From a virus: DNA of 64,000 nucleotides. The notes under the pieces are model-generated. The model did no database searches and was not told the origin of the DNA. It saw nothing but the letters and a program-made list of their open reading frames with translations. The stretch spans positions 62,603-126,602 of the IMG/VR virus record IMGVR_UViG_3300029551_000174, one strand, 5' to 3'. The position numbers and the translations under genes are program-made. This document shows positions 1 through 63,470 of the stretch, piece by piece (the first letter of the stretch is position 1; every line of letters starts with the position of its first letter).

Positions 1-619
1 AGATGGTTTTCTTGATACCAATTTACATACTTTAGCATCAGAAAAGGAGGCGAAATCTTTTATCAAATGTATTGAGGAAAAATTAGGTGGCAAACTCAAT
101 CGTGAGACTCTTGAAGTAGAGAAGACTCAGCCAGAGTTCAAGGATGGGGATATAGTAACTATGCATAAGAAAAACTGTGATATAGTGTTCATTTTTAATA
201 GACTGAAAACTGAAGGTTCTTTCTATTATTACGCTTTCCATGCACTCCAAACAAATACAGGTATAATAGATTGTCATACTACATTGCCTTGTGCGTGGAC
301 ATTTTTTGAGGGCAAAATGAATTTTGCCACAGACTCAGAGAAGCAGCAGCTCTTTGGTGCTCTCGCAAAGGAAGGCAAGGCTTGGGATGCTGATAAGAAA
401 ATGATTGTGAACTTGAAGCCAAAGATTGAGCTGAAACCATTCGATAAGGTGTTGGTAAGAAATCAAAAAACAGAGGAATGGAGTGCAAATATATTTAGCC
501 ATACAGATAAGACTGATGAATATCTTGACTATGTATGTGTTAATGGCAGATGGGAGTTCTGCATCCCTTACATCGGTAATGAGCATTTGTTAGGTACAAC
601 TAAAGATGTGGAGGTATGA
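1..619 (+). CDS. hypothetical protein, 5'-partial (start lies upstream of window); paralog of CDS 45067..46035
   Basis: Open frame from nt 1 to stop at 617-619. nt 1-170 are ~98% identical to 45421-45590, and the C-terminal 90 aa (SEKQQLF.ALAKEGKAWDA...GNEHLLGTTKDVE) align to the C-terminus of 45067..46035. Confidence 0.55.
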   Translation, partial: DGFLDTNLHTLASEKEAKSFIKCIEEKLGGKLNRETLEVEKTQPEFKDGDIVTMHKKNCDIVFIFNRLKTEGSFYYYAFHALQTNTGIIDCHTTLPCAWTFFEGKMNFATDSEKQQLFGALAKEGKAWDADKKMIVNLKPKIELKPFDKVLVRNQKTEEWSANIFSHTDKTDEYLDYVCVNGRWEFCIPYIGNEHLLGTTKDVEV

Positions 620-620
620 G

Positions 621-642
621 CGTGAGACACACGTTAGCAACT
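621..642 (+). promoter_or_regulatory. Conserved hairpin element, copy 1 (cgtg-agaca-cacg + ttagcaact)
   Basis: Sequence motif shared with at least 11 other sites. Lies directly after the stop codon of the upstream CDS. Confidence 0.5.
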
Positions 643-667
643 TTGCTATGCAGAGAAAGGAAAGGCA

Positions 668-3072: not shown

Positions 3073-3999
3073 ATGACAGGATTCAAAAGTGAAAATGTCG
3101 AATTGGAGGCTTTGCCAGTAGCCTCATCAGTTTTAAACAACTTCAAAGAAGGAGGTGTTAGAGTTGTAGAAATTATTGAGCATGACGGCAAGCAATCCGT
3201 GAACGCAAGGGAACTGCACCAAAAGTTGGGCAGCAAGCAGCAGTTTGCTAATTGGATTAGAAATCGTATTGAAAAGTACGGATTCGTTGAAAATCAAGAC
3301 TTTTGCTCATTTAATAAAGTTATTAAACGAGAAAATGGTGCTACAACAGTTACAGAGTATGCCCTTTCGCTAGATATGGCGAAGGAGTTGTGCATGGTTG
3401 AGAACAACGAGAAAGGCAGGATGATTCGCAAGTACTTTATTGAGGTTGAGAAGAAGGCTAGAACACAAAATCCATTTGCAATTCCTCAGACTTATTCTGA
3501 AGCCTTGCTTCTTGCTGCAAACCAAGCAAAGCAAATCGAAAAGCAGCAATTGGCATTGGAGCAGAAGAAAATTGAGAATGACAAGCTGGTTGCAGATGGT
3601 AAGCGCAAGGACGCAACCATAGTACGTATGAAGCCTAAAGAGGTATTCACGGATGCGGTTGCAGGTAGCAAGGGCAATTGCCTAGTTGGTGAGGTTGCGA
3701 AGTTGATAACCCAGAATGGCTACAAGATTGGCGAAAAGCAATTTTTTGCTTGGTTGCGTGATAATGGCTACCTTGGAAAGAAAGGAGAGCGTTACAATAT
3801 TCCTAACCAGCAGTATATGGGTAAGAATCCTTTGTTTTATATCAAGAGAGGTGTGCGACAGGGTGATAATGGAGTGTTGCACACGACAAGTACAACAATG
3901 CTGACACCAAAGGGACAGATTTATTTCGTAAACAAGTTCCTTGGAAAAGGAGGTTTGCAAGGCGATCTGTTTGCGAATGGTGAGGCACACGATAAATAA
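3073..3999 (+). CDS. Phage antirepressor, Bro-N domain + KilA-C domain
   Basis: N-terminus (VEIIEHDGKQSVNARELHQKLGSKQQFANWIRNRIEKYGFVENQDF) is typical of Bro-N. C-terminal KilA-C-like region. Paralogs at 20277..21158 and 16936..17688. Confidence 0.75.
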   Translation: MTGFKSENVELEALPVASSVLNNFKEGGVRVVEIIEHDGKQSVNARELHQKLGSKQQFANWIRNRIEKYGFVENQDFCSFNKVIKRENGATTVTEYALSLDMAKELCMVENNEKGRMIRKYFIEVEKKARTQNPFAIPQTYSEALLLAANQAKQIEKQQLALEQKKIENDKLVADGKRKDATIVRMKPKEVFTDAVAGSKGNCLVGEVAKLITQNGYKIGEKQFFAWLRDNGYLGKKGERYNIPNQQYMGKNPLFYIKRGVRQGDNGVLHTTSTTMLTPKGQIYFVNKFLGKGGLQGDLFANGEAHDK

Positions 4000-4003
4000 A
4001 CTG
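3979..4003 (+). promoter_or_regulatory. Conserved hairpin element overlapping the 3' end and stop codon of the antirepressor gene (ggtg-aggca-cacg + ataaataaactg)
   Basis: Motif; encodes the C-terminal residues GEAHDK*. Confidence 0.5.
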
Positions 4004-4095
4004 TATTGTTAATAATGTGGGGACGTGGTTAGGCTGCGTCTCCACAATAAAAAAAAGATAGATGCAAGATATTAACAAATTATCAAGAAGAGACG

Positions 4096-16856: not shown

Positions 16857-16898
16857 TCCGATTTCCACATTATAGGAATAATAGCTTAATTTTTAGAG

Positions 16899-16921
16899 CG
16901 TGAGTCACACGTTAAAAACTG
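16899..16921 (+). promoter_or_regulatory. Conserved leader hairpin element (cgtg-agtca-cacg + ttaaaaactg)
   Basis: Motif family. Confidence 0.5.
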
Positions 16922-16935
16922 AAAAGGAAAATAGA

Positions 16936-18454: not shown

Positions 18455-18497
18455 TTGTTTGGTATGTTAGAATATATTTTGTATCTTTGCATCGTGA
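18455..18497 (+). promoter_or_regulatory. Bacteroidetes promoter (-7 'ttgtatctttgca') plus the shared leader 'tcgtgattaagaaacaaaggt'
   Basis: Consensus. The leader resembles the 22805 and 44465 cassettes. Confidence 0.5.
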
Positions 18498-18549
18498 TTA
18501 AGAAACAAAGGTCACAAGAACATTATTAATTTAGTTGAGGCAGCGCCTC

Positions 18550-18798: not shown

Positions 18799-19128
18799 AT
18801 GGCTACTACATTTAAGAATATGATGAGAGAAGTGATGAAGCTTGCTTGGCAGTTCATCAAGAAGAATGGCTACACAATGAGCGAGGCTTTAAAGGTCGCT
18901 TGGATGAACATCAAGCTGAAGGGTCAGATGAAGAAGCGCATCGTGAAGTTCTACTTCCAGAAGGTTGATGGCAGCTTGCGTGAGGCATTCGGCACATTGA
19001 GCGAGAAGGTTATCCCAGCTACACAGGGTGCAGGTCGCAAGATGAATGACACTTGCCAAGTGTACTTTGATACCGAGAAAGAAGAATGGCGTTGCTTCAA
19101 GAAGGCAAACCTTATGAGAGTTGCATAA
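18799..19128 (+). CDS. hypothetical protein (paralog of 1975..2313)
   Basis: Alignment. Confidence 0.6.
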   Translation: MATTFKNMMREVMKLAWQFIKKNGYTMSEALKVAWMNIKLKGQMKKRIVKFYFQKVDGSLREAFGTLSEKVIPATQGAGRKMNDTCQVYFDTEKEEWRCFKKANLMRVA

Positions 19129-19160: not shown

Positions 19161-19460
19161 ATGAGCGCAAAGATTATCGTGATGCAAGGCAACATGGTTG
19201 CAACCATCGAAGAGACGAACAAGGACGCATTTCTCAAGCGTGGAGAGTATAAAGAGACCGATCTGGACAGACATAAGCGTGAGGTCGATTTCTTGATTAC
19301 AAGCATCGCTAACCGCTACGAAGTGACATTCAATCACAAGGTAGAGCTGAAGGAAAGCCGAAGCATCAAGAAAAGCGAGTATTTCGATAACATCTACTAC
19401 GTTACCGAGAATGCATTGAACAAGCTGAAAAAGCAATACTCATACGAGTGTGACTTGTAA
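19161..19460 (+). CDS. hypothetical protein
   Basis: ORF in series. Confidence 0.45.
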   Translation: MSAKIIVMQGNMVATIEETNKDAFLKRGEYKETDLDRHKREVDFLITSIANRYEVTFNHKVELKESRSIKKSEYFDNIYYVTENALNKLKKQYSYECDL

Positions 19461-19467
19461 TAGATTT

Positions 19468-19490
19468 CGTGAGGCACACGCTAAACTGCA
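19468..19490 (+). promoter_or_regulatory. Conserved hairpin element (cgtg-aggca-cacg + ctaaactg)
   Basis: Motif family. Directly after the stop of 19161..19460. Confidence 0.5.
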
Positions 19491-19521: not shown

Positions 19522-19821
19522 ATGGATAAGAATTTGATGGATGCTCTTTACGTTGAGCATGATGGCAAGATTGGCGTTTTAAGCTCAGATGAGTACAAGG
19601 TGGTATCACAGGTTATCGGCACGGATTTGACGCTTGTGTACGACAAGAAAGAGGGTAATACGTACCTTTTGATACCACTAACCCGAAAACATAAGTTCGA
19701 ATGCAATTGTAGTCACATTATCGTGGATGGCAAGCGGTTCGATTCTGACATCTTTTTCCGCAAGGATGCTTGCCAATGGATTCAGATGCAATCAAAAGAA
19801 ATGCTATTAATGGTAGCGTAA
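19522..19821 (+). CDS. hypothetical protein (paralog of 2661..2957)
   Basis: Start moved to the internal ATG matching the paralog N-terminus (MDKNLMDALYVEHDGKIGVL). Confidence 0.55.
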   Translation: MDKNLMDALYVEHDGKIGVLSSDEYKVVSQVIGTDLTLVYDKKEGNTYLLIPLTRKHKFECNCSHIIVDGKRFDSDIFFRKDACQWIQMQSKEMLLMVA

Positions 19822-19832
19822 CATAAAATTAA

Positions 19833-19858
19833 GGTGAGGCACACTTGAACAACTGCAC
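19833..19858 (+). promoter_or_regulatory. Conserved hairpin element (ggtg-aggca-cac + ttgaacaactg)
   Basis: Motif family. Confidence 0.45.
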
Positions 19859-20276: not shown

Positions 20277-21158
20277 ATGACATTAGAATTTAACAAAACT
20301 GATGTAAATGTAGAGGCTTTACCAGTAGTCTCAGAGTTCCTTAACAAAGAAAAGAGAGGTATTGAAGTTGTAGAGATTATCGAGCATGACGGCAAACAAG
20401 CCGTGAACGCAAGGGAGCTGCACCAAAAGTTGGGCAGTAAGCAAGACTTTTCAACATGGATTAAAAATCGCATAGAAAAGTATGGATTCGTTGAAAATCA
20501 AGATTTTGAAGTTTTCCACAAAATTATGGAAAACTCAAATGGTGGTCGAAGTCGTATTGAGTATGCCTTATCTTTGGATATGGCAAAGGAGTTGTGTATG
20601 ATAGAGAACAATGAGCAAGGTAGATTGTTCCGTAAGTACTTCATCGAAGTCGAGAAAGTTGCCAGAGTCAAGTACGAGCAGGAGAAGCTGGACAAGAAGG
20701 CTTCCGATTCCTTTGACATCAAGCTGAAGTGGTTGAACTTTCTTCCTGGTTATCTGAACCTCAGCGATGTTTCCAAATTGGCGATGGCTAAGAAAATTGC
20801 TGAACCATTAGGGTTGCCGACACCTGATTATGTGAGCGCACCGAATGGTGCAAAGCATTCCGCTACGGAGTTATTGAAATCTCATGGTGTAGGCTTGTCT
20901 GCTCGAAAGTTCAATGAGTTGGCGGTAAAGGCAGGATTATTGAAGCTAAAAGAGCGCAAGGGTACGAACAAGGTACACAAGTATTGTGAGATTACCAAGA
21001 AAGGATTGGCTTATGGTGAGAACGACATCAACGAGAAGAATATGAATCAAACACAACCACATTGGTATGATTCTAAATTTGGGGAGGTATTGGAAATCAT
21101 CGGCTACAAGTCATCCAAGCAAGTAGATATGTTTGCAAGCGGTGAGACACACGATTAA
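20277..21158 (+). CDS. Phage antirepressor, Bro-N domain protein
   Basis: N-terminus (VEIIEHDGKQAVNARELHQKLGSKQDFSTWIKNRIEKYGFVENQDF) is ~90% identical to 3073..3999. The C-terminus differs and matches 16936..17688. Confidence 0.75.
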   Translation: MTLEFNKTDVNVEALPVVSEFLNKEKRGIEVVEIIEHDGKQAVNARELHQKLGSKQDFSTWIKNRIEKYGFVENQDFEVFHKIMENSNGGRSRIEYALSLDMAKELCMIENNEQGRLFRKYFIEVEKVARVKYEQEKLDKKASDSFDIKLKWLNFLPGYLNLSDVSKLAMAKKIAEPLGLPTPDYVSAPNGAKHSATELLKSHGVGLSARKFNELAVKAGLLKLKERKGTNKVHKYCEITKKGLAYGENDINEKNMNQTQPHWYDSKFGEVLEIIGYKSSKQVDMFASGETHD

Positions 21159-21165
21159 ACTGTAG
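21141..21165 (+). promoter_or_regulatory. Conserved hairpin element overlapping the 3' end of the antirepressor gene (ggtg-agaca-cacg + attaaactgtag)
   Basis: Encodes SGETHD*. Confidence 0.5.
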
Positions 21166-21277
21166 TAATATTGATATATAATCGAGAAGGAGGGGAATGC
21201 GTGATGCACTCTCCTCTTTTTTATGTCTGAAAGTTTTTGTTTTTCACAATATAGATAAGTGTTGTTAAACTGAATGC

Positions 21278-21317
21278 TAATTTTTGGTAGAGTGGAATAT
21301 AATAGTTATCTTTGTGG
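21278..21317 (+). promoter_or_regulatory. Bacteroidetes promoter (-7 'ttatctttgtgg')
   Basis: Consensus upstream of thyX. Confidence 0.45.
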
Positions 21318-21341
21318 TCGAATTTCAAAACTTATAAGGAT

Positions 21342-22238
21342 ATGAAGATATTAGAACCGAGATATGAAATCCTATCCCAAGGCAAGGGCATGGATGGAGT
21401 TTACAAGCAGATAGAGTTATGCGGTCGCACTTGCTATGCGTCAAGTATGAAGATAGACAAAGACAGCGCAAAGCCTTTCGTAGAGCGTATGGTAAGCAGC
21501 AACCATCTTGCCATGTGTGAACATGGAACAATTTATCTCCATGTTGCTTACGATAATGACTTCTTTGTTCCGGAGTCTCTACTGGTAAAACACTATCGTG
21601 AGAACAAGTATTCCAAGGTGATGCAGATAGGTAACGATTACTATATTACGACTAACTACAGAGTTATAGTAGAGAATGAATGGTTTGAGGATTTGGACTA
21701 TATTTGCGATCCTACGGAATGGCATGAGAAGCGAATAACAGTCCGCTTTACTACTCAGATTGCGGTAAGTAGAGAGGCTAACAGACATCGTGTAGATTCC
21801 GTAGCGGAACAAAGCACCCGATATTGCAACTATAGTAAAGATAAGTTCGGAGGAGAGATTGCTATCAACAAGCCAAAGTGGGTTAGCGAAGATGATGCGG
21901 TTAATCCATCGTCTTTTGATGGTGGAACATTTGTTGACCTATCAAAGAACATCGGTAGTTATGAGCATTGGAGTCCGGTAGAAAAATGGTGGTTTGCAAA
22001 TAGAGTATGCGAAATGATGTATTTGTCTTTGGTCAAGGATGATGGTCTTAAACCACAGGATGCGAGAACGATACTTCCTCTTGATACCAACACGGAGTTG
22101 ATTCATACAGCATTCGTGAGTGATTGGCTTCATTTCTTCGATTTGCGATCAAAAGGAACTACCGGAAAGCCTCATCCAGATATTGAGGTCTTGGCAACCC
22201 CATTGATGAATGAGTTCAAGGAACGAGGTTTGATTTAA
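21342..22238 (+). CDS. thyX: Flavin-dependent thymidylate synthase ThyX
   Basis: ThyX motif RHRxxxxxxxS (ANRHRVDSVAEQSTRY). Start moved to the ATG downstream of the promoter. Confidence 0.8.
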   Translation: MKILEPRYEILSQGKGMDGVYKQIELCGRTCYASSMKIDKDSAKPFVERMVSSNHLAMCEHGTIYLHVAYDNDFFVPESLLVKHYRENKYSKVMQIGNDYYITTNYRVIVENEWFEDLDYICDPTEWHEKRITVRFTTQIAVSREANRHRVDSVAEQSTRYCNYSKDKFGGEIAINKPKWVSEDDAVNPSSFDGGTFVDLSKNIGSYEHWSPVEKWWFANRVCEMMYLSLVKDDGLKPQDARTILPLDTNTELIHTAFVSDWLHFFDLRSKGTTGKPHPDIEVLATPLMNEFKERGLI

Positions 22239-22244
22239 TCGCTT

Positions 22245-22715
22245 ATGAAGAAGAAAGCCAAGCAAATAGCCAATGTGATGAGCAATGACTCTTTGGAGGT
22301 TGTTGCTCAGATGATTGTTGATGAGGCTAAAGGTGTGCGCTATGAAGTGTATGCTGATGGCTCTAGTAAGAACAACAAGTGTGGTTGCGGTTGGCTTGTG
22401 CTTCATAAGGGAGCGATTATCAAAAGTGGGAAATATACATTTATCACAGCCAAAGTGAACGATTCGGTGAGAGCCGAAATAAGGGCGGTCATTCAAGCAT
22501 TGGGTGATTGCCCTCTTTTGTGTTCTGTTGATGTATATGTGGATTGCCAAGTGGCTATAGAGAGAATACAGGCTTGCAAGTTAGGAGACTTACAGCCTAT
22601 ATATAATAAGGTAGCGAAAGGCAAGGTGATAAGATACCATTGGGTTAAGGCTCATAGAGGTAATATGTATAATGAAATGGTGGATTCTTTGGCTTTTTCT
22701 GCTACAGAAAGTTAA
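22245..22715 (+). CDS. rnhA: Ribonuclease HI
   Basis: VYADGSS... catalytic Asp, and HWVKAHRGNMYNEMVDSLA, typical of the RNase H fold. Confidence 0.7.
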   Translation: MKKKAKQIANVMSNDSLEVVAQMIVDEAKGVRYEVYADGSSKNNKCGCGWLVLHKGAIIKSGKYTFITAKVNDSVRAEIRAVIQALGDCPLLCSVDVYVDCQVAIERIQACKLGDLQPIYNKVAKGKVIRYHWVKAHRGNMYNEMVDSLAFSATES

Positions 22716-22759
22716 TTTTGCGCCTACATATATAATAAGCGTTAAAATGCAAAAGAAAT

Positions 22760-22812
22760 ACATTAAATAATTTGCATATTTCGATAATTCTTTGTATCTT
22801 TGCATCGTAATT
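22760..22812 (+). promoter_or_regulatory. Bacteroidetes promoter (ataatttgca ... tgtatctttgca), part of the repeated promoter-leader cassette
   Basis: Consensus. 22741-22862 is ~97% identical to 44401-44527. Confidence 0.6.
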
Positions 22813-22837
22813 AAGAAACAAGGTTACTAATTAAAAA

Positions 22838-22861
22838 GGTGAGACACACCGTAAAAACTGT
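22838..22861 (+). promoter_or_regulatory. Conserved leader hairpin element (ggtg-agaca-cacc + gtaaaaactgt)
   Basis: Motif family. Confidence 0.55.
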
Positions 22862-22869
22862 GATTCGTT

Positions 22870-23091
22870 ATGAATACTAGATTGAGTAAGAAAGAAACAA
22901 TGGTTTATGGCAATATCGAAGTGATGGCTGATGTAATTGGTGGTAACAAGTACTTTACATTTGCTGAGTTGTATGATTTCGATTTGGATAATACCAAGGA
23001 TGAGTTGAAAGAAATGTTAAACTCTTTGACAGAGAAAGGTTACTTGAAGAGTTTTCACGATTTCTACGAAACTTATCGAGTTTTAAAGTAA
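22870..23091 (+). CDS. hypothetical protein
   Basis: First ORF after the promoter-leader cassette. Confidence 0.45.
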   Translation: MNTRLSKKETMVYGNIEVMADVIGGNKYFTFAELYDFDLDNTKDELKEMLNSLTEKGYLKSFHDFYETYRVLK

Positions 23092-23100
23092 GAATAACAA

Positions 23101-23121
23101 AGGGGATATAAAATCCCCTTA
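23101..23121 (+). terminator. Hairpin (aagggga-tataaaa-tcccctt)
   Basis: Perfect 7-bp stem. Confidence 0.45.
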
Positions 23122-23137
23122 CAATATAAATTTAGAA

Positions 23138-23160
23138 CGTGAGACACACGTAAAACTGTA
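23138..23160 (+). promoter_or_regulatory. Conserved hairpin element (cgtg-agaca-cacg + taaaactgta)
   Basis: Motif family. Confidence 0.5.
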
Positions 23161-23257
23161 TTGAAACAATGAAAAAGGTATTCACAATTGAGAATGCGTT
23201 AGCGTTTTTATTTGCTCTTGAAATAGTATCTTTAATTTATTTTCTAGGATAGGGCTT

Positions 23258-37626: not shown

Positions 37627-38733
37627 ATGTATAAAAACGAGCACAAGTTCCCTTATAGATGGACTAAAAAAGATGCTAATTTCACAAAAGACAAAGGTAA
37701 GGTGATGTCTTGCTTCTGTTGTGGAGGTGGAAGTTCCTTTGGCTACAAACTAGCTGGCTACGATGTTGTAGCCTGTAATGAGATAGACCCAAAGGTTATG
37801 AAGATGTACTTGAAGAATCACGATGTCAAGTATGCTTTCAATTGTGATATTCGTGAGTTGATTACCAATATCAATATGGGGGGGCATATTATGAAAGAAG
37901 AGCTTCATAATTTGGATATATTGGATGCTAGTTTCCCTTGTTCGGTATTCAGTATTGCAGGTGACCGCCAAAAGGCTTGGGGAAAGGAAAAAGTATTCCG
38001 AGAAGGTCAGAAAGCACAAAGGCTTGACGATTTGGCTTTTTACTCAATCGCCCTCGCTCAAGAACTACAACCAAAGGTAGTGGTTTTTGAGAATGTCCAA
38101 GGTTTGTTGCAAGGTGAAGCTATCGAGTACGTGAAAGAGATTTACAGGCAGATGGATAATGCCGGATATATCTTGCAGCATTGGTTGCTTAATGCACGTA
38201 ATATGGGTGTTCCTCAGAATCGACCTAGGGTGTTCTTTCTAGGATTACGCAAAGACCTTTGCAAGCCGTTTATGGTTCAGAAGGATTTGTTCGAGCGAGT
38301 GCCTAAGATAGATATGGACTTCAACGAGAAAGAAATTGTCTTGGATGAGTTTTCGGACTATAGTGGAAGACAGATTCCAAAAGGAGTGATGAAGTATTGG
38401 GAGCATAGAAACGAGAAAGACAATTCTATCGGTGATATTGTCAAACGGATGGATAATCGTCTTTCTATGTTCAATAATATGTTTCTTAAAAAGGATAAAG
38501 TATGCAATACTATATCAGCAATGGAAGATAGGCTTTTGTATTTTGATAATCCAAGTTATATTTCAGCGCATGATACGATTTTAGCATCAACATTCCCGAT
38601 GGATTATGACTTTAATGGCATGAAGCCTTGGTTTGCTTGCGGAATGTGCGTTCCTCCGGTTATGATGGCGAATGTAGCTGCGAGAATCTGGGATTGTTGG
38701 TTGTCAAAGATTAAAAAGGAGGAATGCGCATGA
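37627..38733 (+). CDS. DNA (cytosine-5)-methyltransferase
   Basis: Motif I FCCGGGSS, PC motif ASFPCSVFSIAG, ENV motif VFENVQGL. Confidence 0.8.
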   Translation: MYKNEHKFPYRWTKKDANFTKDKGKVMSCFCCGGGSSFGYKLAGYDVVACNEIDPKVMKMYLKNHDVKYAFNCDIRELITNINMGGHIMKEELHNLDILDASFPCSVFSIAGDRQKAWGKEKVFREGQKAQRLDDLAFYSIALAQELQPKVVVFENVQGLLQGEAIEYVKEIYRQMDNAGYILQHWLLNARNMGVPQNRPRVFFLGLRKDLCKPFMVQKDLFERVPKIDMDFNEKEIVLDEFSDYSGRQIPKGVMKYWEHRNEKDNSIGDIVKRMDNRLSMFNNMFLKKDKVCNTISAMEDRLLYFDNPSYISAHDTILASTFPMDYDFNGMKPWFACGMCVPPVMMANVAARIWDCWLSKIKKEECA

Positions 38734-44291: not shown

Positions 44292-44419
44292 CCCAAAGAC
44301 AAAATACCTTTGAGTGCTTTGCCCCATCACTATATATAATAATGTAGTGGTGGGGATTTTTGTGTTAACATCAGCAAATTATCCGTCTGTATTATTATAG
44401 TATGTTAAATACTAAAAGA

Positions 44420-44472
44420 AACACATTAAATAGTTTGCATATTTCGATTATTCTTTGTATCTTTGCATCGTA
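44420..44472 (+). promoter_or_regulatory. Bacteroidetes promoter, copy of the 22760 promoter-leader cassette
   Basis: 44401-44527 is ~97% identical to 22741-22862. Confidence 0.6.
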
Positions 44473-44500
44473 ATTAAGAAACAAGGTTACTAATTAAAAA

Positions 44501-44524
44501 GGTGAGACACACCTTAAAAACTGT
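44501..44524 (+). promoter_or_regulatory. Conserved leader hairpin element (ggtg-agaca-cacc + ttaaaaactgt)
   Basis: Motif family. Confidence 0.55.
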
Positions 44525-44533
44525 AATGAGAAA

Positions 44534-44908
44534 ATGAAAAAGTTTTTTGAAAACTTATCTGAAAAGATTAATGATGCGGCTTTTGAGGCGCAGCTTGATG
44601 ATTTTGCTTGCGAGTTTGATGCTATTGACAAACCTGCCGAAATCGTGGTGTCTGTTAAGAGTCGAAAGGTTATCCATTCAAATGGAAATGTTTCCTTTTA
44701 TCCATATTACAATGTAGATAAGATAAATATCTATGATGAAGACGGAGAAGACGTTTCTTCAAAATATCCTTTGTTCTGCCAAAGAGTTAAGGATTGCGTG
44801 CCTTCTTACAAGGATATTGAGAATAGTCTAGAAGAGGCAAATATGAGCGATACCGAGCTTTATTTCGGCTCAGAGGCTAATTATTTGCGTTATAAGTATG
44901 GTAACTAA
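44534..44908 (+). CDS. hypothetical protein
   Basis: First ORF after the cassette. Confidence 0.45.
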   Translation: MKKFFENLSEKINDAAFEAQLDDFACEFDAIDKPAEIVVSVKSRKVIHSNGNVSFYPYYNVDKINIYDEDGEDVSSKYPLFCQRVKDCVPSYKDIENSLEEANMSDTELYFGSEANYLRYKYGN

Positions 44909-53117: not shown

Positions 53118-54323
53118 ATGAATGAGTTTACAAAGGTCTTTGCAAAGACAATAGAAGATGAAGCTATCAAGCAGATAGAAGTTCTATCCAATAGCGATGC
53201 TTACTCTGGTTGTGAAATAAGAATAATGCCAGATTGTCACGCAGGTAAAGGCTGTACTATTGGCACGGTGATAGAGCTGGACAAAAGAGTAGTTCCTAAC
53301 ACCGTAGGAGTAGATATAGGTTGTGGAATGAAAGTCGTTAGACTTGGTAAAGTTAATATTAATCTACAGAAATTTGACGAAGCAGTCAATACGTTGATTC
53401 CATCTGGTTTCAATATCAACGAAGAAGCTTCTGCATTCATACATGGATTAGTTGACGGCAATATGTTTGGTAAATTTCGTTCTTGGGATAGTATTAATGG
53501 GATGGATATAGTATATCGTTCTGTTGGTTCTCTTGGTGGGGGTAATCACTTTATAGAGTTAGATGCAAACGAAGAGGGTGAGAAGTTTCTTGTGATACAT
53601 ACAGGAAGTAGAAACCTTGGAGTTAGGGTATGCAACTATTACCAAAACCTTGCTTACCAGTATTGCCACAAGAAGGCTGCCGATAAGTCGGAGGTTATTG
53701 CCAAGCTAAAAAGCGAAGGCAGAGAAAATGAGATACAGAGTGTTATTAAGTCATTAGGTACTAAAAATATAAGCAAGGAACTTTCTTACTTGGAAGGTGA
53801 TTTGCTCAATGACTACCTCAATGATATGCGCATAGTTCAAAAATATGCTGAACAAAACAGAATGATTATCGCCAACAGACTTGTAAATGCTTTAGGTGTA
53901 GATATTGATGCTAATTCAGATAAGTATTCTTTTACAACCATTCACAACTATATAGATACAGACAAGGGTATATTGCGAAAGGGAGCTATCAGTGCAAAAA
54001 AGGATGAGGTAGTCATTATCCCAATGAATATGCGTGATGGTTCTCTTATCTGCAAGGGAAAAGGTAACAAAGATTGGCTATGCTCTGCCCCTCATGGCGC
54101 AGGTAGATTAATGTCTCGTACACAGGCAAAGAAAGAGTTATCTATGGATTCTTACAAGAATGAAATGAATGGTATTTATTCCACATCAGTTTGTGAAGAA
54201 ACCATTGATGAAGCACCTATGGCATACAAGCCAACCGAAGAAATTGTTGAGTTAATCAAACCTACGGTTGATGTCATTGATGTCATTAAGCCAATTTACA
54301 ACTTTAAAGCAAAATCATTATGA
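53118..54323 (+). CDS. rtcB: RNA ligase RtcB (3'-phosphate/5'-OH RNA ligase)
   Basis: Metal-binding motifs IMPDCHAGKGCTIGTV and GGNHFIEL. 401 aa. Confidence 0.8.
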   Translation: MNEFTKVFAKTIEDEAIKQIEVLSNSDAYSGCEIRIMPDCHAGKGCTIGTVIELDKRVVPNTVGVDIGCGMKVVRLGKVNINLQKFDEAVNTLIPSGFNINEEASAFIHGLVDGNMFGKFRSWDSINGMDIVYRSVGSLGGGNHFIELDANEEGEKFLVIHTGSRNLGVRVCNYYQNLAYQYCHKKAADKSEVIAKLKSEGRENEIQSVIKSLGTKNISKELSYLEGDLLNDYLNDMRIVQKYAEQNRMIIANRLVNALGVDIDANSDKYSFTTIHNYIDTDKGILRKGAISAKKDEVVIIPMNMRDGSLICKGKGNKDWLCSAPHGAGRLMSRTQAKKELSMDSYKNEMNGIYSTSVCEETIDEAPMAYKPTEEIVELIKPTVDVIDVIKPIYNFKAKSL

Positions 54324-57573: not shown

Positions 57574-58116
57574 TCATTTTATTTCGATAAGAGTTAAAAT
57601 GCAATAACCCAACAAGTCTTTATAGCTGTCAAGAATAGGTTCTTCTTTAGCATCCTCGTTCAAAGTAAGCAAAGAGCAAATACGATTAATCTTCTCTTGC
57701 AAATGACCGAATGCATACGGATAACCATCCTTAGAGAAACATTCCGAGAAAGCGTTTCCATACCGCTTATTCTTGGTTTTGAAAAGCTCGATTTGCGACC
57801 CGATGATGTCGTTATAATCAGAAACAATATACCAAGAGAGCGTAAGCAAGGCTTCCATCGCCATTACGCTGATATGATTTCGTAAGGTTTCTTTGTCTTC
57901 AGAAGATGCTCGAATCTCATACATAAGACGAAGGAAATTGGCTGCGCTTGAAAATAATCCGAGCTTTCCGAAGTCCTCCCTTAGAGACGAAACGAAAGTG
58001 GCATTATCCTTGCATTCAATCATGTCTGCCAAATGTCTAATCTCAAAGATATACTTGTTAGCATATTCGCTACACCCATTGTTATTTTGTTCCACCATGT
58101 CCGTATCCTCCTCCAC
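57574..58116 (-). CDS. hypothetical protein
   Basis: ORF. Confidence 0.45.
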   Translation of the reverse strand: MEEDTDMVEQNNNGCSEYANKYIFEIRHLADMIECKDNATFVSSLREDFGKLGLFSSAANFLRLMYEIRASSEDKETLRNHISVMAMEALLTLSWYIVSDYNDIIGSQIELFKTKNKRYGNAFSECFSKDGYPYAFGHLQEKINRICSLLTLNEDAKEEPILDSYKDLLGYCILTLIEIK

Positions 58117-62135: not shown

Positions 62136-63308
62136 TTAAAAGAATGTATTTGTTAATTGTTTATTTCCACTCATTATTACCCACTTTCCTTTGCCGTTTT
62201 GATCTAGCAATTTCAAGTCTTCAACCTTCCCGAACCTCTCATAAGTACCGCAGAGGTCAACAAACCAAGGCTGTTTCCCTTTTGATAGTCTAAGAAGTCT
62301 TCCTACAACTTGATAGTATTGCGCTAATGAGCGTGTTGGCTTTGCATACACGACCGTATCTAACTCCGGATAGTCAAAACCTACGACTAATATTTGACTA
62401 TTTACCAATACTTTAGTCTGACCATTACGGAAACGCTCGATGATTGCTTCACGTTCTTTTGGAGGAGTCTCTCCGCAAACCATTTCACAGTTAGGTATGG
62501 AATATGTCAGCTTCTGAGCTTCCTTAACGAACTTCGTAAAAACCAAGATACCTTTACGCTGTCCACCTCGTTTAGGATTAAGCAATCTTTTAACAACACT
62601 AACTAGCCATCCGTACAAATCTACACGTTCATATTCTTGCTTGACACTTTGGTCAGTGTAATCACGGCAAGTTGAATTGAGCTGCAAGTTTCCTTCGTTC
62701 CATTGTGGTGGCGGGCATTTGTAATAGTTCGGAAGACAGATATATCCGTTTTTTGCCATATCCTCAACTTGAACATAGTAAATAAGCTCCTTGAAAATCT
62801 TGTCTCTACTTCTTGTCAGAAACTTCAGTATGCTACCATAGTTCTGATAGGAATACAAACGGAAAGGTGTTGCGGTTAAACCTATGACCTTACTCTTTAA
62901 TTTATCAAGAAACTCCTTATACATGCCGGATTCAGGTTTTACTAAATGAACCTCATCAATTAATATGTATTTAAAGTCTGTAAACAATTCGGGATGTCCT
63001 TTCACGCTACCAATTGTAGCAAAAGTAACATCGCTGATTTCTTTTGATTTAAAGCTAGCGGAATAGATGCTGGCATTATCAAATCCATAAGAACAATACT
63101 TCTTGTAGTTTTGTTCCAAAATCTCCTTAGTAGGAGAGAACACAAGCACTTTATCCTTGAGCCTAGCAGCTATATCTGCTAAAATCAATGATTTGCCCGA
63201 TGCAGTAGGAAGCACTTCCAGAGCGTTCCAGTTTTTCTTCTTATCCAAGAAAAACTCAACAGCCTTCTTGCTTGCCTCTTCTTGATATGGTCTTAATTTA
63301 AACTTCAT
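62136..63308 (-). CDS. Superfamily-2 DNA helicase (DEAD/DEAH-box type)
   Basis: Motif I PTASGKS, motif II ILIDEVH, motif III GLTATPFR. Confidence 0.8.
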   Translation of the reverse strand: MKFKLRPYQEEASKKAVEFFLDKKKNWNALEVLPTASGKSLILADIAARLKDKVLVFSPTKEILEQNYKKYCSYGFDNASIYSASFKSKEISDVTFATIGSVKGHPELFTDFKYILIDEVHLVKPESGMYKEFLDKLKSKVIGLTATPFRLYSYQNYGSILKFLTRSRDKIFKELIYYVQVEDMAKNGYICLPNYYKCPPPQWNEGNLQLNSTCRDYTDQSVKQEYERVDLYGWLVSVVKRLLNPKRGGQRKGILVFTKFVKEAQKLTYSIPNCEMVCGETPPKEREAIIERFRNGQTKVLVNSQILVVGFDYPELDTVVYAKPTRSLAQYYQVVGRLLRLSKGKQPWFVDLCGTYERFGKVEDLKLLDQNGKGKWVIMSGNKQLTNTFF

Positions 63309-63393
63309 TTCACAAATAATATGAAATCACTTTTGTTACTATATAGGAATGCACAAGTCTTATGCATAACAAAAGCCCTTAGAGAAGACCTTA

Positions 63394-63416
63394 CAGTTTT
63401 TATGGTGTGTCTCACC
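63394..63416 (-). promoter_or_regulatory. Conserved leader hairpin element on the minus strand (ggtg-agaca-cacc + ataaaaactg)
   Basis: Reverse complement of cagtttttatggtgtgtctcacc. Confidence 0.55.
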
Positions 63417-63417
63417 G

Positions 63418-63470
63418 AATACGATTGCAAAGATACAAAGAATAATTTAATAATGCAAGCGTTTTAATGC
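63418..63470 (-). promoter_or_regulatory. Bacteroidetes promoter (minus strand) for the helicase/replication operon; copy of the promoter cassette
   Basis: Reverse complement reads aaacgcttgca...attctttgtatctttgcaatcg. Confidence 0.55.

Follow-up and report, generated by a model that had tools for sequence, protein, structure and literature searches.

Several leaders are known in which a pseudoknot in the initiation region determines how the 30S subunit is loaded, such as the T4 gene 32 leader, the E. coli rpsO/S15 operator and the tisB standby-site pseudoknot. Each of these elements serves a single gene; most have an autoregulatory protein as their partner and work alongside a Shine-Dalgarno sequence. 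Initiation in Bacteroidetes does not use Shine-Dalgarno pairing, and the choice of start codons by their ribosomes is only partly understood. Also known are the boundary sequences of lambdoid phages and mycobacteriophages, which are short, conserved, located at gene boundaries and sometimes found where the homology of relatives stops. Here we describe a short repeated element in 64,000 nucleotides of viral DNA (positions 62,603 to 126,602 of IMG/VR record IMGVR_UViG_3300029551_000174; hereafter the window, with coordinates counted from its first letter). A first-pass annotation had noticed it at 21141-21165, at the 3′ end of a gene of the antirepressor (Ant) family, and had preferred to read it as a recombination linker marking the joints of mosaic genes. 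The analyses presented below lead us to propose, with moderate confidence, that the element is a cis-acting RNA structure of the translation-initiation region in organisms that do not use Shine-Dalgarno sequences.

The core GTGAGRCACAC, allowing at most one mismatch, matched ten times in the 64-kb window against 0.89 matches expected, and none of 100 shuffled sequences reached ten. Exactly these ten sites were recovered by a covariance model with scores of 23-45 bits, while the next best match scored 10.5 bits. All ten are on the coding strand, nine on the plus strand among plus-strand genes and one on the minus strand within the minus-strand replication block, and all are either intergenic or overlap the last codons of a gene. 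Alignment of the copies showed a second conserved block, (A)AACUGY, located 3-10 nt past the core. The complete pattern is thus GTGAGRCACAC-N(3-10)-AACUGY, an almost invariant unit of 25-29 nt and typically 27 nt. As judged from its sequence, this unit would fold in the mRNA as an H-type mini-pseudoknot. Its stem 1 has 4 bp, 5′-N-G-U-G with C-A-C-N′, and encloses the 5-nt loop AGRCA. Of this loop, A-G constitutes loop 1 and R-C-A pairs with a downstream U-G-Y as stem 2, and the A-rich loop 3 has 6-10 nt and ends in AAC. RNAfold finds the stem-1 hairpin unaided in most contexts. The conserved "hairpin motif" of the first-pass annotation is therefore real as an element, but the structured unit exceeds a 3-bp GTG/CAC hairpin, as the flanking bases extend the stem to 4 bp and the loop pairs with downstream sequence.

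We assessed the predicted helices in 64 distinct sequences taken from the window, 116 of the viral loci, 30 genome loci and scans for variants. Positions assigned to pairs were paired in 96.7% of cases compared to 87.7% in shuffles, with none of 500 shuffles matching the observed value, and controls in which the register was slid gave 11-57%. Double changes were seen at three of the seven pairs, and the two positions that vary across copies do so in concert. The closing pair of stem 1, formed by the base before the core and the base after it, was G-C in 33 sequences, C-G in 16, G.U in 4, A-U in 1, U-A in 1 and unpaired in 9. The variable pair of stem 2, between the loop R and the Y that follows ACUG, was A-U in 40, G-C in 10, G.U in 4, U-A in 3, U.G in 2 and unpaired in 5. 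When pyrimidines were searched for at the variable loop position, U had A or G as its partner in all six contexts found, and the lone context with C was mismatched. A scan of IMG/VR for variants at U2 gave a single match (locus L147, GAGAGACACTC), in which the change is compensated by A10-to-U, converting U-A to A-U, and in which an ATG still lies 8 nt downstream. Variants at G3, C7 and A8 were absent from the IMG/VR scans, in keeping with an exact shape or sequence being recognized. The helices are thus supported, and the primary sequence is also very tightly constrained. The G.U and U.G wobbles, together with the strand bias, suggest that the sense strand is the functional form, most simply as RNA. 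A site for a dimeric DNA-binding protein was rejected, as symmetric flank changes (G-C, C-G, U-A, A-U), wobbles and the strict strand bias are better explained by a single strand that folds.

The position of the element relative to start codons is highly constrained. Clustering the copies by their downstream sequence yielded 47 independent contexts, in which an ATG or GTG was counted as a start when 20 codons or more could be read from it. In 30 of them, the start codon is found 7-9 nt past the last paired base (7 nt in 5, 8 nt in 14 and 9 nt in 11 contexts), compared to 3.6% at random positions, and the spacer sequence between element and start differs from context to context. On the upstream side, the distance from the -7 promoter box to the element ranges from 11 to 46 nt with a flat spread, and 28 of 49 upstream contexts, these being intercistronic, have no promoter box. 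The tight spacing to start codons and the loose spacing to promoters suggest that the element is placed by the start codon and not by the transcription start. The distance of 7-9 nt from the 3′ edge of the element equals the usual Shine-Dalgarno spacing. The element itself contains neither GGAGG nor AGGAG, as would be complementary to the CCUCC core at the 3′ end of 16S rRNA; its only similar sequence is a GGUG about 30 nt before the AUG, which is lost in the copies having a C-G closing pair.

The element is not confined to this phage and is widespread in phage contigs of the human gut. Scanning IMG/VR with the exact pattern gave at least 116 loci in gut phage contigs mostly of ~20-130 kb, some shorter and one of 222 kb, and a scan of bacterial genomes detected the exact element in Bacteroidales chromosomes. 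Many Alistipes genomes carry it 8 nt ahead of a gene for a 680-aa ParB-like protein. In Prevotella/Segatella it is located behind ordinary promoters and ahead of small ORFs; the flanks of one such locus (L118) are prophage-like, with amidoligase, SNF2 helicase and ParB/PAPS-reductase genes, and those of another (L139) contain only RadC, a phosphoribosyltransferase-domain gene and a LuxR-type regulator. In a Bacteroidales metagenome-assembled genome from goat rectum, the exact element (L136 613-643, minus strand) lies 7 nt ahead of the ATG of chromosomal cysS, a housekeeping gene for cysteinyl-tRNA synthetase, in a normal chromosomal neighborhood with purE and purL. Stem 2, RCA:UGY, resembles the Cys anticodon on its codon, and a reading related to Cys-tRNA or T-boxes was considered for this locus; with one such context among 47, we took the resemblance as coincidence. 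No regulator common to the chromosomal loci and the window was found by blastp. The unrelated settings and the lack of a common regulator favor a host-derived partner, for instance the ribosome, and we consider that the partner is probably host machinery. At one of the Alistipes loci (L121 4830-5060, minus strand), the motif and the ParB-like gene are preceded by a long G+C-rich inverted repeat of ~230 nt, and a SIR2-like gene is encoded divergently. This region resembles the hairpin promoters and single-strand initiation regions of conjugative leading regions. The sequence just upstream of the motif looks similar at other Alistipes loci, with the long repeat having been read at L121 only.

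How might such an element act on initiation? The 3′ edge of the pseudoknot, 7-9 nt ahead of the start codon, would lie where the Shine-Dalgarno helix sits in other bacteria. The folded element may dock on the 30S subunit, either at the platform or at protein S1, and the docked element would position or recruit the ribosome on genes of mobile elements, both promoter-proximal genes and internal cistrons. We presume that the effect is to enhance initiation as opposed to repressing or timing it, and we prefer direct recruitment through 30S or S1 to an operator for a conserved RNA-binding regulator. A more specific proposal, which we put forward only tentatively, is that of a portable, Bacteroidales-specific and Shine-Dalgarno-independent docking signal, in which a cis-folded 7-bp coaxial helix replaces the helix between Shine-Dalgarno and anti-Shine-Dalgarno sequences on the 30S platform, or is bound by S1. 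Such a signal might be shared and exchanged by phages and integrative elements for strong early translation where the anti-Shine-Dalgarno of the host is sequestered. If the element is a strong initiation signal, it would represent a ribosome-binding site of a new kind and a useful component for the engineering of gut Bacteroides and Prevotella, for which expression tools are limited. It would also serve as a marker for gene starts and for early or accessory genes in uncultured gut phages.

Several observations argue against the assignment to translation initiation or reduce the weight of the evidence for it. Twelve of the 47 contexts lack a start codon in the 4-16-nt range, including both copies that overlap Ant genes in the window and the helicase leader (84 nt), and the model leaves the role of the Ant-overlapping copies unaccounted for. 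With five of the seven pairs all but invariant, the case for the helices depends on the other two and on the single compensated variant, and many copies are of shared ancestry, for which reason the shuffle statistics overstate their independence. The single IMG/VR match in a scan for G1 variants (L148, ATGAGACACAC) is uncompensated. Predicted energies are -1.4 to -4.0 kcal/mol for stem 1 alone and about -0.6 to +2 kcal/mol for stem 2 alone, making the pseudoknot marginal and implying that tertiary contacts or a partner would be needed. Finally, the near-total invariance of the element fits a sequence-specific protein operator equally well.

The location of copies at gene junctions initially suggested a linker that provides homology for the exchange of gene modules between phages, in which case breakpoints among related phages should coincide with the motif. 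We compared 116 of the viral loci (of 1-15 kb) to the window by blastn and obtained 179 distinct internal clusters of homology breakpoints, of which only 7 were within 40 nt of a copy (3.9%, compared to a coverage-weighted expectation of 3.3%). Where alignments reach a copy, 135 continue through it and 40 break (23%), and breaks are no rarer at 107 gene starts lacking the motif, where 592 alignments cross and 221 break (27%). Collinear homology crosses most copies; at 22836..22862, 23136..23160 and 63392..63418, there were 38, 38 and 23 spanning alignments against 2, 0 and 0 breaks, respectively. Some joints do fall at or beside copies (614-617, 19844, 21185/21190, 22862 and 44542), as a linker would predict. 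For the gene upstream of copy 619..645, the homology of relatives ends at 614-617, with a truncated Ant fragment coming next; in three relatives homology stops at 19844, within copy 19831..19857; and thirteen begin at the foot of a terminator, 21185/21190, which is 21-26 nt past copy 21139..21164, with everything to the left replaced. Also in keeping with a linker, a promoter-leader cassette ending in the motif precedes different genes in relatives, and Ant genes with unrelated C-terminal domains have a motif-containing tail in common. The cassette at 44318-44542 (225 nt, containing copy 44499..44525) stands before other genes in relatives; a second version of this ~200-nt promoter-plus-leader unit is found at 22664-22862, and the duplicated cassette precedes at least six different genes in relatives. 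These joints are what is expected from the reuse of a portable regulatory cassette, and do not denote a recombination device. Occasional recombination through the Ant tail is possible as a by-product, since Ant genes with different C-terminal domains share this motif-containing 3′ end. In addition, a linker would leave unexplained the strand specificity, the compensatory changes, the anchoring to start codons and the occurrence in otherwise unrelated elements, and ~27 nt is short for efficient homologous exchange. We therefore consider a linker function very improbable. The sequence facts of the first-pass annotation were right, and its preferred interpretation fails the breakpoint test; its fallback, a regulatory site that must be retained, pointed in the right direction, except that the site is placed by start codons and not by gene ends. 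More generally, a sequence that is conserved where the genes of a mosaic genome meet is not necessarily a linker for recombination.

Among regulatory explanations, an operator for a trans-acting RNA-binding regulator that switches a set of early or accessory genes off or on, a conserved protein of the host or of many mobile elements and possibly related to Ant, appears unlikely but deserves to be weighed. T4 RegA and phage coat proteins act at operators beside start codons, and the fixed place of the element there, its extreme invariance even within stems (typical of base-specific protein recognition) and its several copies per genome, resembling a regulon, would all be accommodated. Most of the ten window copies are in the accessory region at 16.9-23.2 kb, and four of the ten touch Ant genes. 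However, the element also occurs in phages, in unrelated Alistipes and Prevotella/Segatella loci and before chromosomal cysS with no common candidate regulator nearby, and no RNA-binding protein was seen among the ~40 window ORFs scanned, of roughly 116. A site for transcription elongation (antitermination like that of nut, put or ops), or for RNA processing or stability defining mRNA ends, is in our view less probable still. The ops, boxB and put sites act through small hairpins formed by the non-template strand or by nascent RNA. The strand specificity, the promoter upstream in ~20 upstream contexts and a strong hairpin or terminator 11-25 nt later in at least four independent contexts (3977..4005 and 21139..21164 in the window, L093:1787, L141:523 and L146:34) would suit such a role. 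Neither antitermination nor protection of 5′ ends needs tight start-codon spacing with loose promoter spacing, however, and many intercistronic copies lack a nearby terminator. The pairing of loop with downstream sequence spans ~22 nt, more than the transcription bubble exposes, and no N-, Q- or RfaH/NusG-like gene was found among the ~40 window proteins scanned. To a minimal riboswitch, in which the pseudoknot would bind a small molecule and control the adjacent start codon or following terminator, we give hardly any credence. The topology is like that of preQ1-I, with a hairpin, an A-rich 3′ tail and tail-to-loop pairing, and start codons and terminators, beside which the element is found, are the two usual expression platforms. 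Against this, there is no Rfam match even at an E-value of 10 over 22760-23200, stem 2 abuts stem 1 with no loop 2 for a ligand pocket, the genes downstream (Ant, helicase, ParB, cysS and many small ORFs) share no function, and no riboswitch is known to be present ten times in a single phage genome.

The copies that overlap Ant genes merit separate consideration. The two window genes, 20277..21158 and 3073..3999 on the plus strand, match PHROG 63/5817 and carry the motif at their 3′ ends. As the first-pass annotation had stated, their C-terminal domains are unrelated: by BLASTP the N-terminal 132 residues are 69% identical and the C-terminal halves unrelated. Reading of the sequence also confirmed that the element is in frame and specifies both C-termini. 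Copy 21139..21164 (30.4 bits) covers the last five codons and the stop of 20277-21158, where 21141-21165 (gGTGAGACACACgattaaACTGTag) reads GGT GAG ACA CAC GAT TAA and encodes G-E-T-H-D-stop; its stem 1 is limited to GUG/CAC since the bases flanking the core (N0-N12) are G/G, and its stem 2 is ACA:UGU. Copy 3977..4005 (34.8 bits) covers the last codons and stop of 3073-3999, with 3979-4004 (gGTGAGGCACACgataaataaACTGT) encoding G-E-A-H-D-K-stop, and its stem 2, GCA:UGU, contains one G.U wobble. The same frame, GGU GAG RCA CAC for G-E-T/A-H with the stop codon falling in loop 3, is used in all five coding-overlap contexts (the two in the window, L093/L101, L141 and L146). Across them GGT GAG RCA CAC shows zero synonymous changes, and the sole change is a non-synonymous A/G at the position that varies in non-coding copies, which indicates selection on the nucleotides and not on the peptide. 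In most of these copies the outer pair of stem 1 is a mismatch, given that the codon that follows has to lead into the stop. Copy 21139..21164 is followed after 21 nt by a canonical intrinsic terminator (21185..21223, plus strand) having a G+C-rich 12-bp stem and then U6, and copy 3977..4005 is followed after 11 nt by a 14-bp hairpin (4016..4046, plus strand) and then A8, without a U run. A mini-ORF, AUG UGG GGA CGU GGU UAG (4015-4032), begins 10 nt past the latter pseudoknot, inside the 5′ arm of the hairpin, and the arrangement is kept in a relative (L141 559-590, MWGVA*). Attenuation through such mini-ORFs was rejected as a general explanation, as the arrangement is clean only for the 3977..4005/L141 type (MWGRG*, MWGVA*) and is not conserved in the 21139..21164 type. 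The Ant-end copies could affect the following terminator, could act on the short ORF 10 nt downstream in the 3977..4005 type, or could have been retained through exchange of Ant cassettes.

The other eight copies precede genes or follow stop codons, and all are on the plus strand except the last. The first-pass annotation had placed the element directly after the stops of <1..619, 19161..19460 and 19522..19821, and the element was indeed seen to start 3, 9 and 13 nt past the stops at 619, 19460 and 19821. The first of these copies, 619..645, is the weakest (23.4 bits, with AACUUUG in place of AACUGY) and stands ahead of ORF 668-1270, which matches only the C-terminal two-thirds of Ant profiles and is probably an N-terminally truncated Ant remnant left by rearrangement. 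The intercistronic copy 19466..19490 (30.6 bits) has a C-G closing pair and stem 2 GCA:UGC, and the next ATG, 19522, is 32 nt downstream. The intercistronic copy 19831..19857 (36.7 bits) has a G.U closing pair and the same stem 2, and the spacing to the gene after it is also longer than 7-9 nt. Copy 16897..16923 (35 bits), with U at the variable loop position and A as its partner, lies 45 nt past a -7 promoter box and has the ATG of an Ant gene (~16936) 13 nt downstream. The 7-9-nt rule is kept at three sites. Copy 22836..22862 (40.7 bits) is in the leader behind a Bacteroides-type promoter (22771..22802, plus strand, TTTG-N20-TAnnTTTG), and the ATG of gene 22870-23091 is 8 nt past its last paired base. 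Copy 23136..23160 (35.7 bits, closing pairs C-G plus A-U) is located past a hairpin (23100-23120) and 9 nt from the ATG of a 27-codon hydrophobic ORF, 23169-23252. The best-scoring copy, 44499..44525 (45.2 bits), is behind a near-identical copy of the former promoter (44434-44465), with the ATG of gene 44534-44908 9 nt downstream. The minus-strand copy 63392..63418 (42.2 bits), 12 nt past the -7 box (63426-63435) of a minus-strand promoter, belongs to the helicase/replication operon, in whose leader it lies; a 20-codon upstream ORF begins ~25 nt downstream of the copy, and the ATG of the helicase gene (63308) follows at ~84 nt. Another small hairpin (UAAUUA...UAAUUA, or GUAA/UUAC against GUGA/UCAC) lies in the cassette leader between promoter and pseudoknot. 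At 18458-18520, a promoter is followed by the same leader start and no pseudoknot.

The window belongs to a tailed phage, with a 2177-aa tape-measure protein, a major capsid protein, a minus-strand replication block, five tRNAs and RtcB. Its promoters have the Bacteroides form TTTG-N19-21-TAnnTTTG, on the basis of which we assign it to a phage of Bacteroidales. The closest public records are unannotated phage contigs from human feces; no annotated relative was found in the phage collection, and plasmids gave no match. The tRNA cluster (28326-28763) lies behind a promoter at 28152-28183. One of its members (28614-28688) was reported by ARAGORN as "tRNA-??? anticodon (gg)" and by Rfam as a normal tRNA of 58 bits, and its anticodon loop may be unusual. 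The RtcB RNA ligase is encoded at 53118-54323 (Pfam E-value 5e-63); the combination of this ligase and the tRNA cluster suggests that tRNAs cut by anticodon nucleases of the host are repaired. Genes for a ThyX-like protein, an amidoligase, a fragment of a class-II glutamine amidotransferase and a DUF1599 "nucleotide modification" domain co-occur (21312-22238, 29507-30442, 30518-31051 and 57574-58116), a set resembling those of phages with hypermodified thymidine in their DNA, and a C5 cytosine methylase is encoded at 37627-38733. Within the motif-rich accessory region, a small protein (18799-19128) has a WYL_2 domain (Sm-like SH3 barrel); WYL domains are frequent in nucleic-acid-binding regulators.

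Several known identities were considered for the element and rejected. It is not an intrinsic terminator, having a 4-bp stem followed by an A-rich stretch, with the true terminator being separate at 21185-21223. A promoter for a crAss-like virion RNA polymerase was discarded since the 2177-aa ORF is the tape-measure protein and the element also occurs outside phages, and sigma-54/ECF or T7/SP6-like promoters were discarded since the box spacing varies from 3 to 10 nt and the element is downstream of ordinary Bacteroides promoters. Its copies are dispersed and not tandem, as opposed to ToxI-like antitoxin repeats. The STAXI pseudoknot motif is found in Enterobacteriales as tandem repeats (Weinberg 2010, PMC2864571) and had no match here through Rfam. 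With Rfam 15, the scan at gathering scores gave only tRNAs, and a search of 22760-23200, which includes two copies, gave no match to the motif at an E-value of 10 or less. A full-text literature search with the motif sequence returned no relevant paper.

Compared with described systems, the architecture is on paper nearly the same as that of luteovirus frameshift pseudoknots such as that of beet western yellows virus (BWYV) in its published structures, with a stem 1 of 4-5 bp, a 2-nt loop 1, a 3-bp stem 2, 0-1 junction base and a 6-10-nt A-rich loop 3, which could likewise lie in the stem-1 minor groove. No slippery X XXY YYZ heptamer, which would be expected 5-8 nt upstream, was found ahead of the Ant-overlapping copies (GATATGTTTGCAAGCG, GATCTGTTTGCGAATG), there are no overlapping frames and most copies are in untranslated leaders, indicating that the element is not a frameshift signal. 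The preQ1-I aptamer (RF00522), of 34 nt, which the element resembles more loosely, is likewise a very small H-type pseudoknot in which the end of an A-rich 3′ tail pairs with the hairpin loop; the element differs in having no match to that covariance model, a loop of 5 nt compared to about 11-14 nt, no ligand pocket and no queuosine genes. Lambda nut boxB, HK022 put and RfaH ops are, like the element, small strand-specific hairpins in leaders, some upstream of terminators, but they are placed by promoters and terminators away from start codons, whereas the element is anchored to starts and no cognate factor was seen. Unlike the boundary sequences of lambdoid phages and mycobacteriophages, it shows no enrichment of breakpoints over other gene boundaries, and it differs from them further in its structure, its strand specificity and its link to start codons. 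This RNA motif appears not to have been described before; it is of the type of cis-regulatory structures in 5′ leaders, and by analogy the functionally closest systems would be the initiation-controlling pseudoknots of T4 gene 32, rpsO and tisB. In contrast to those, the element described here is a portable and near-invariant cassette standing before dozens of unrelated genes, and this portability, the near-invariance and the use by mobile elements of several Bacteroidales genera are unusual for a leader RNA structure.

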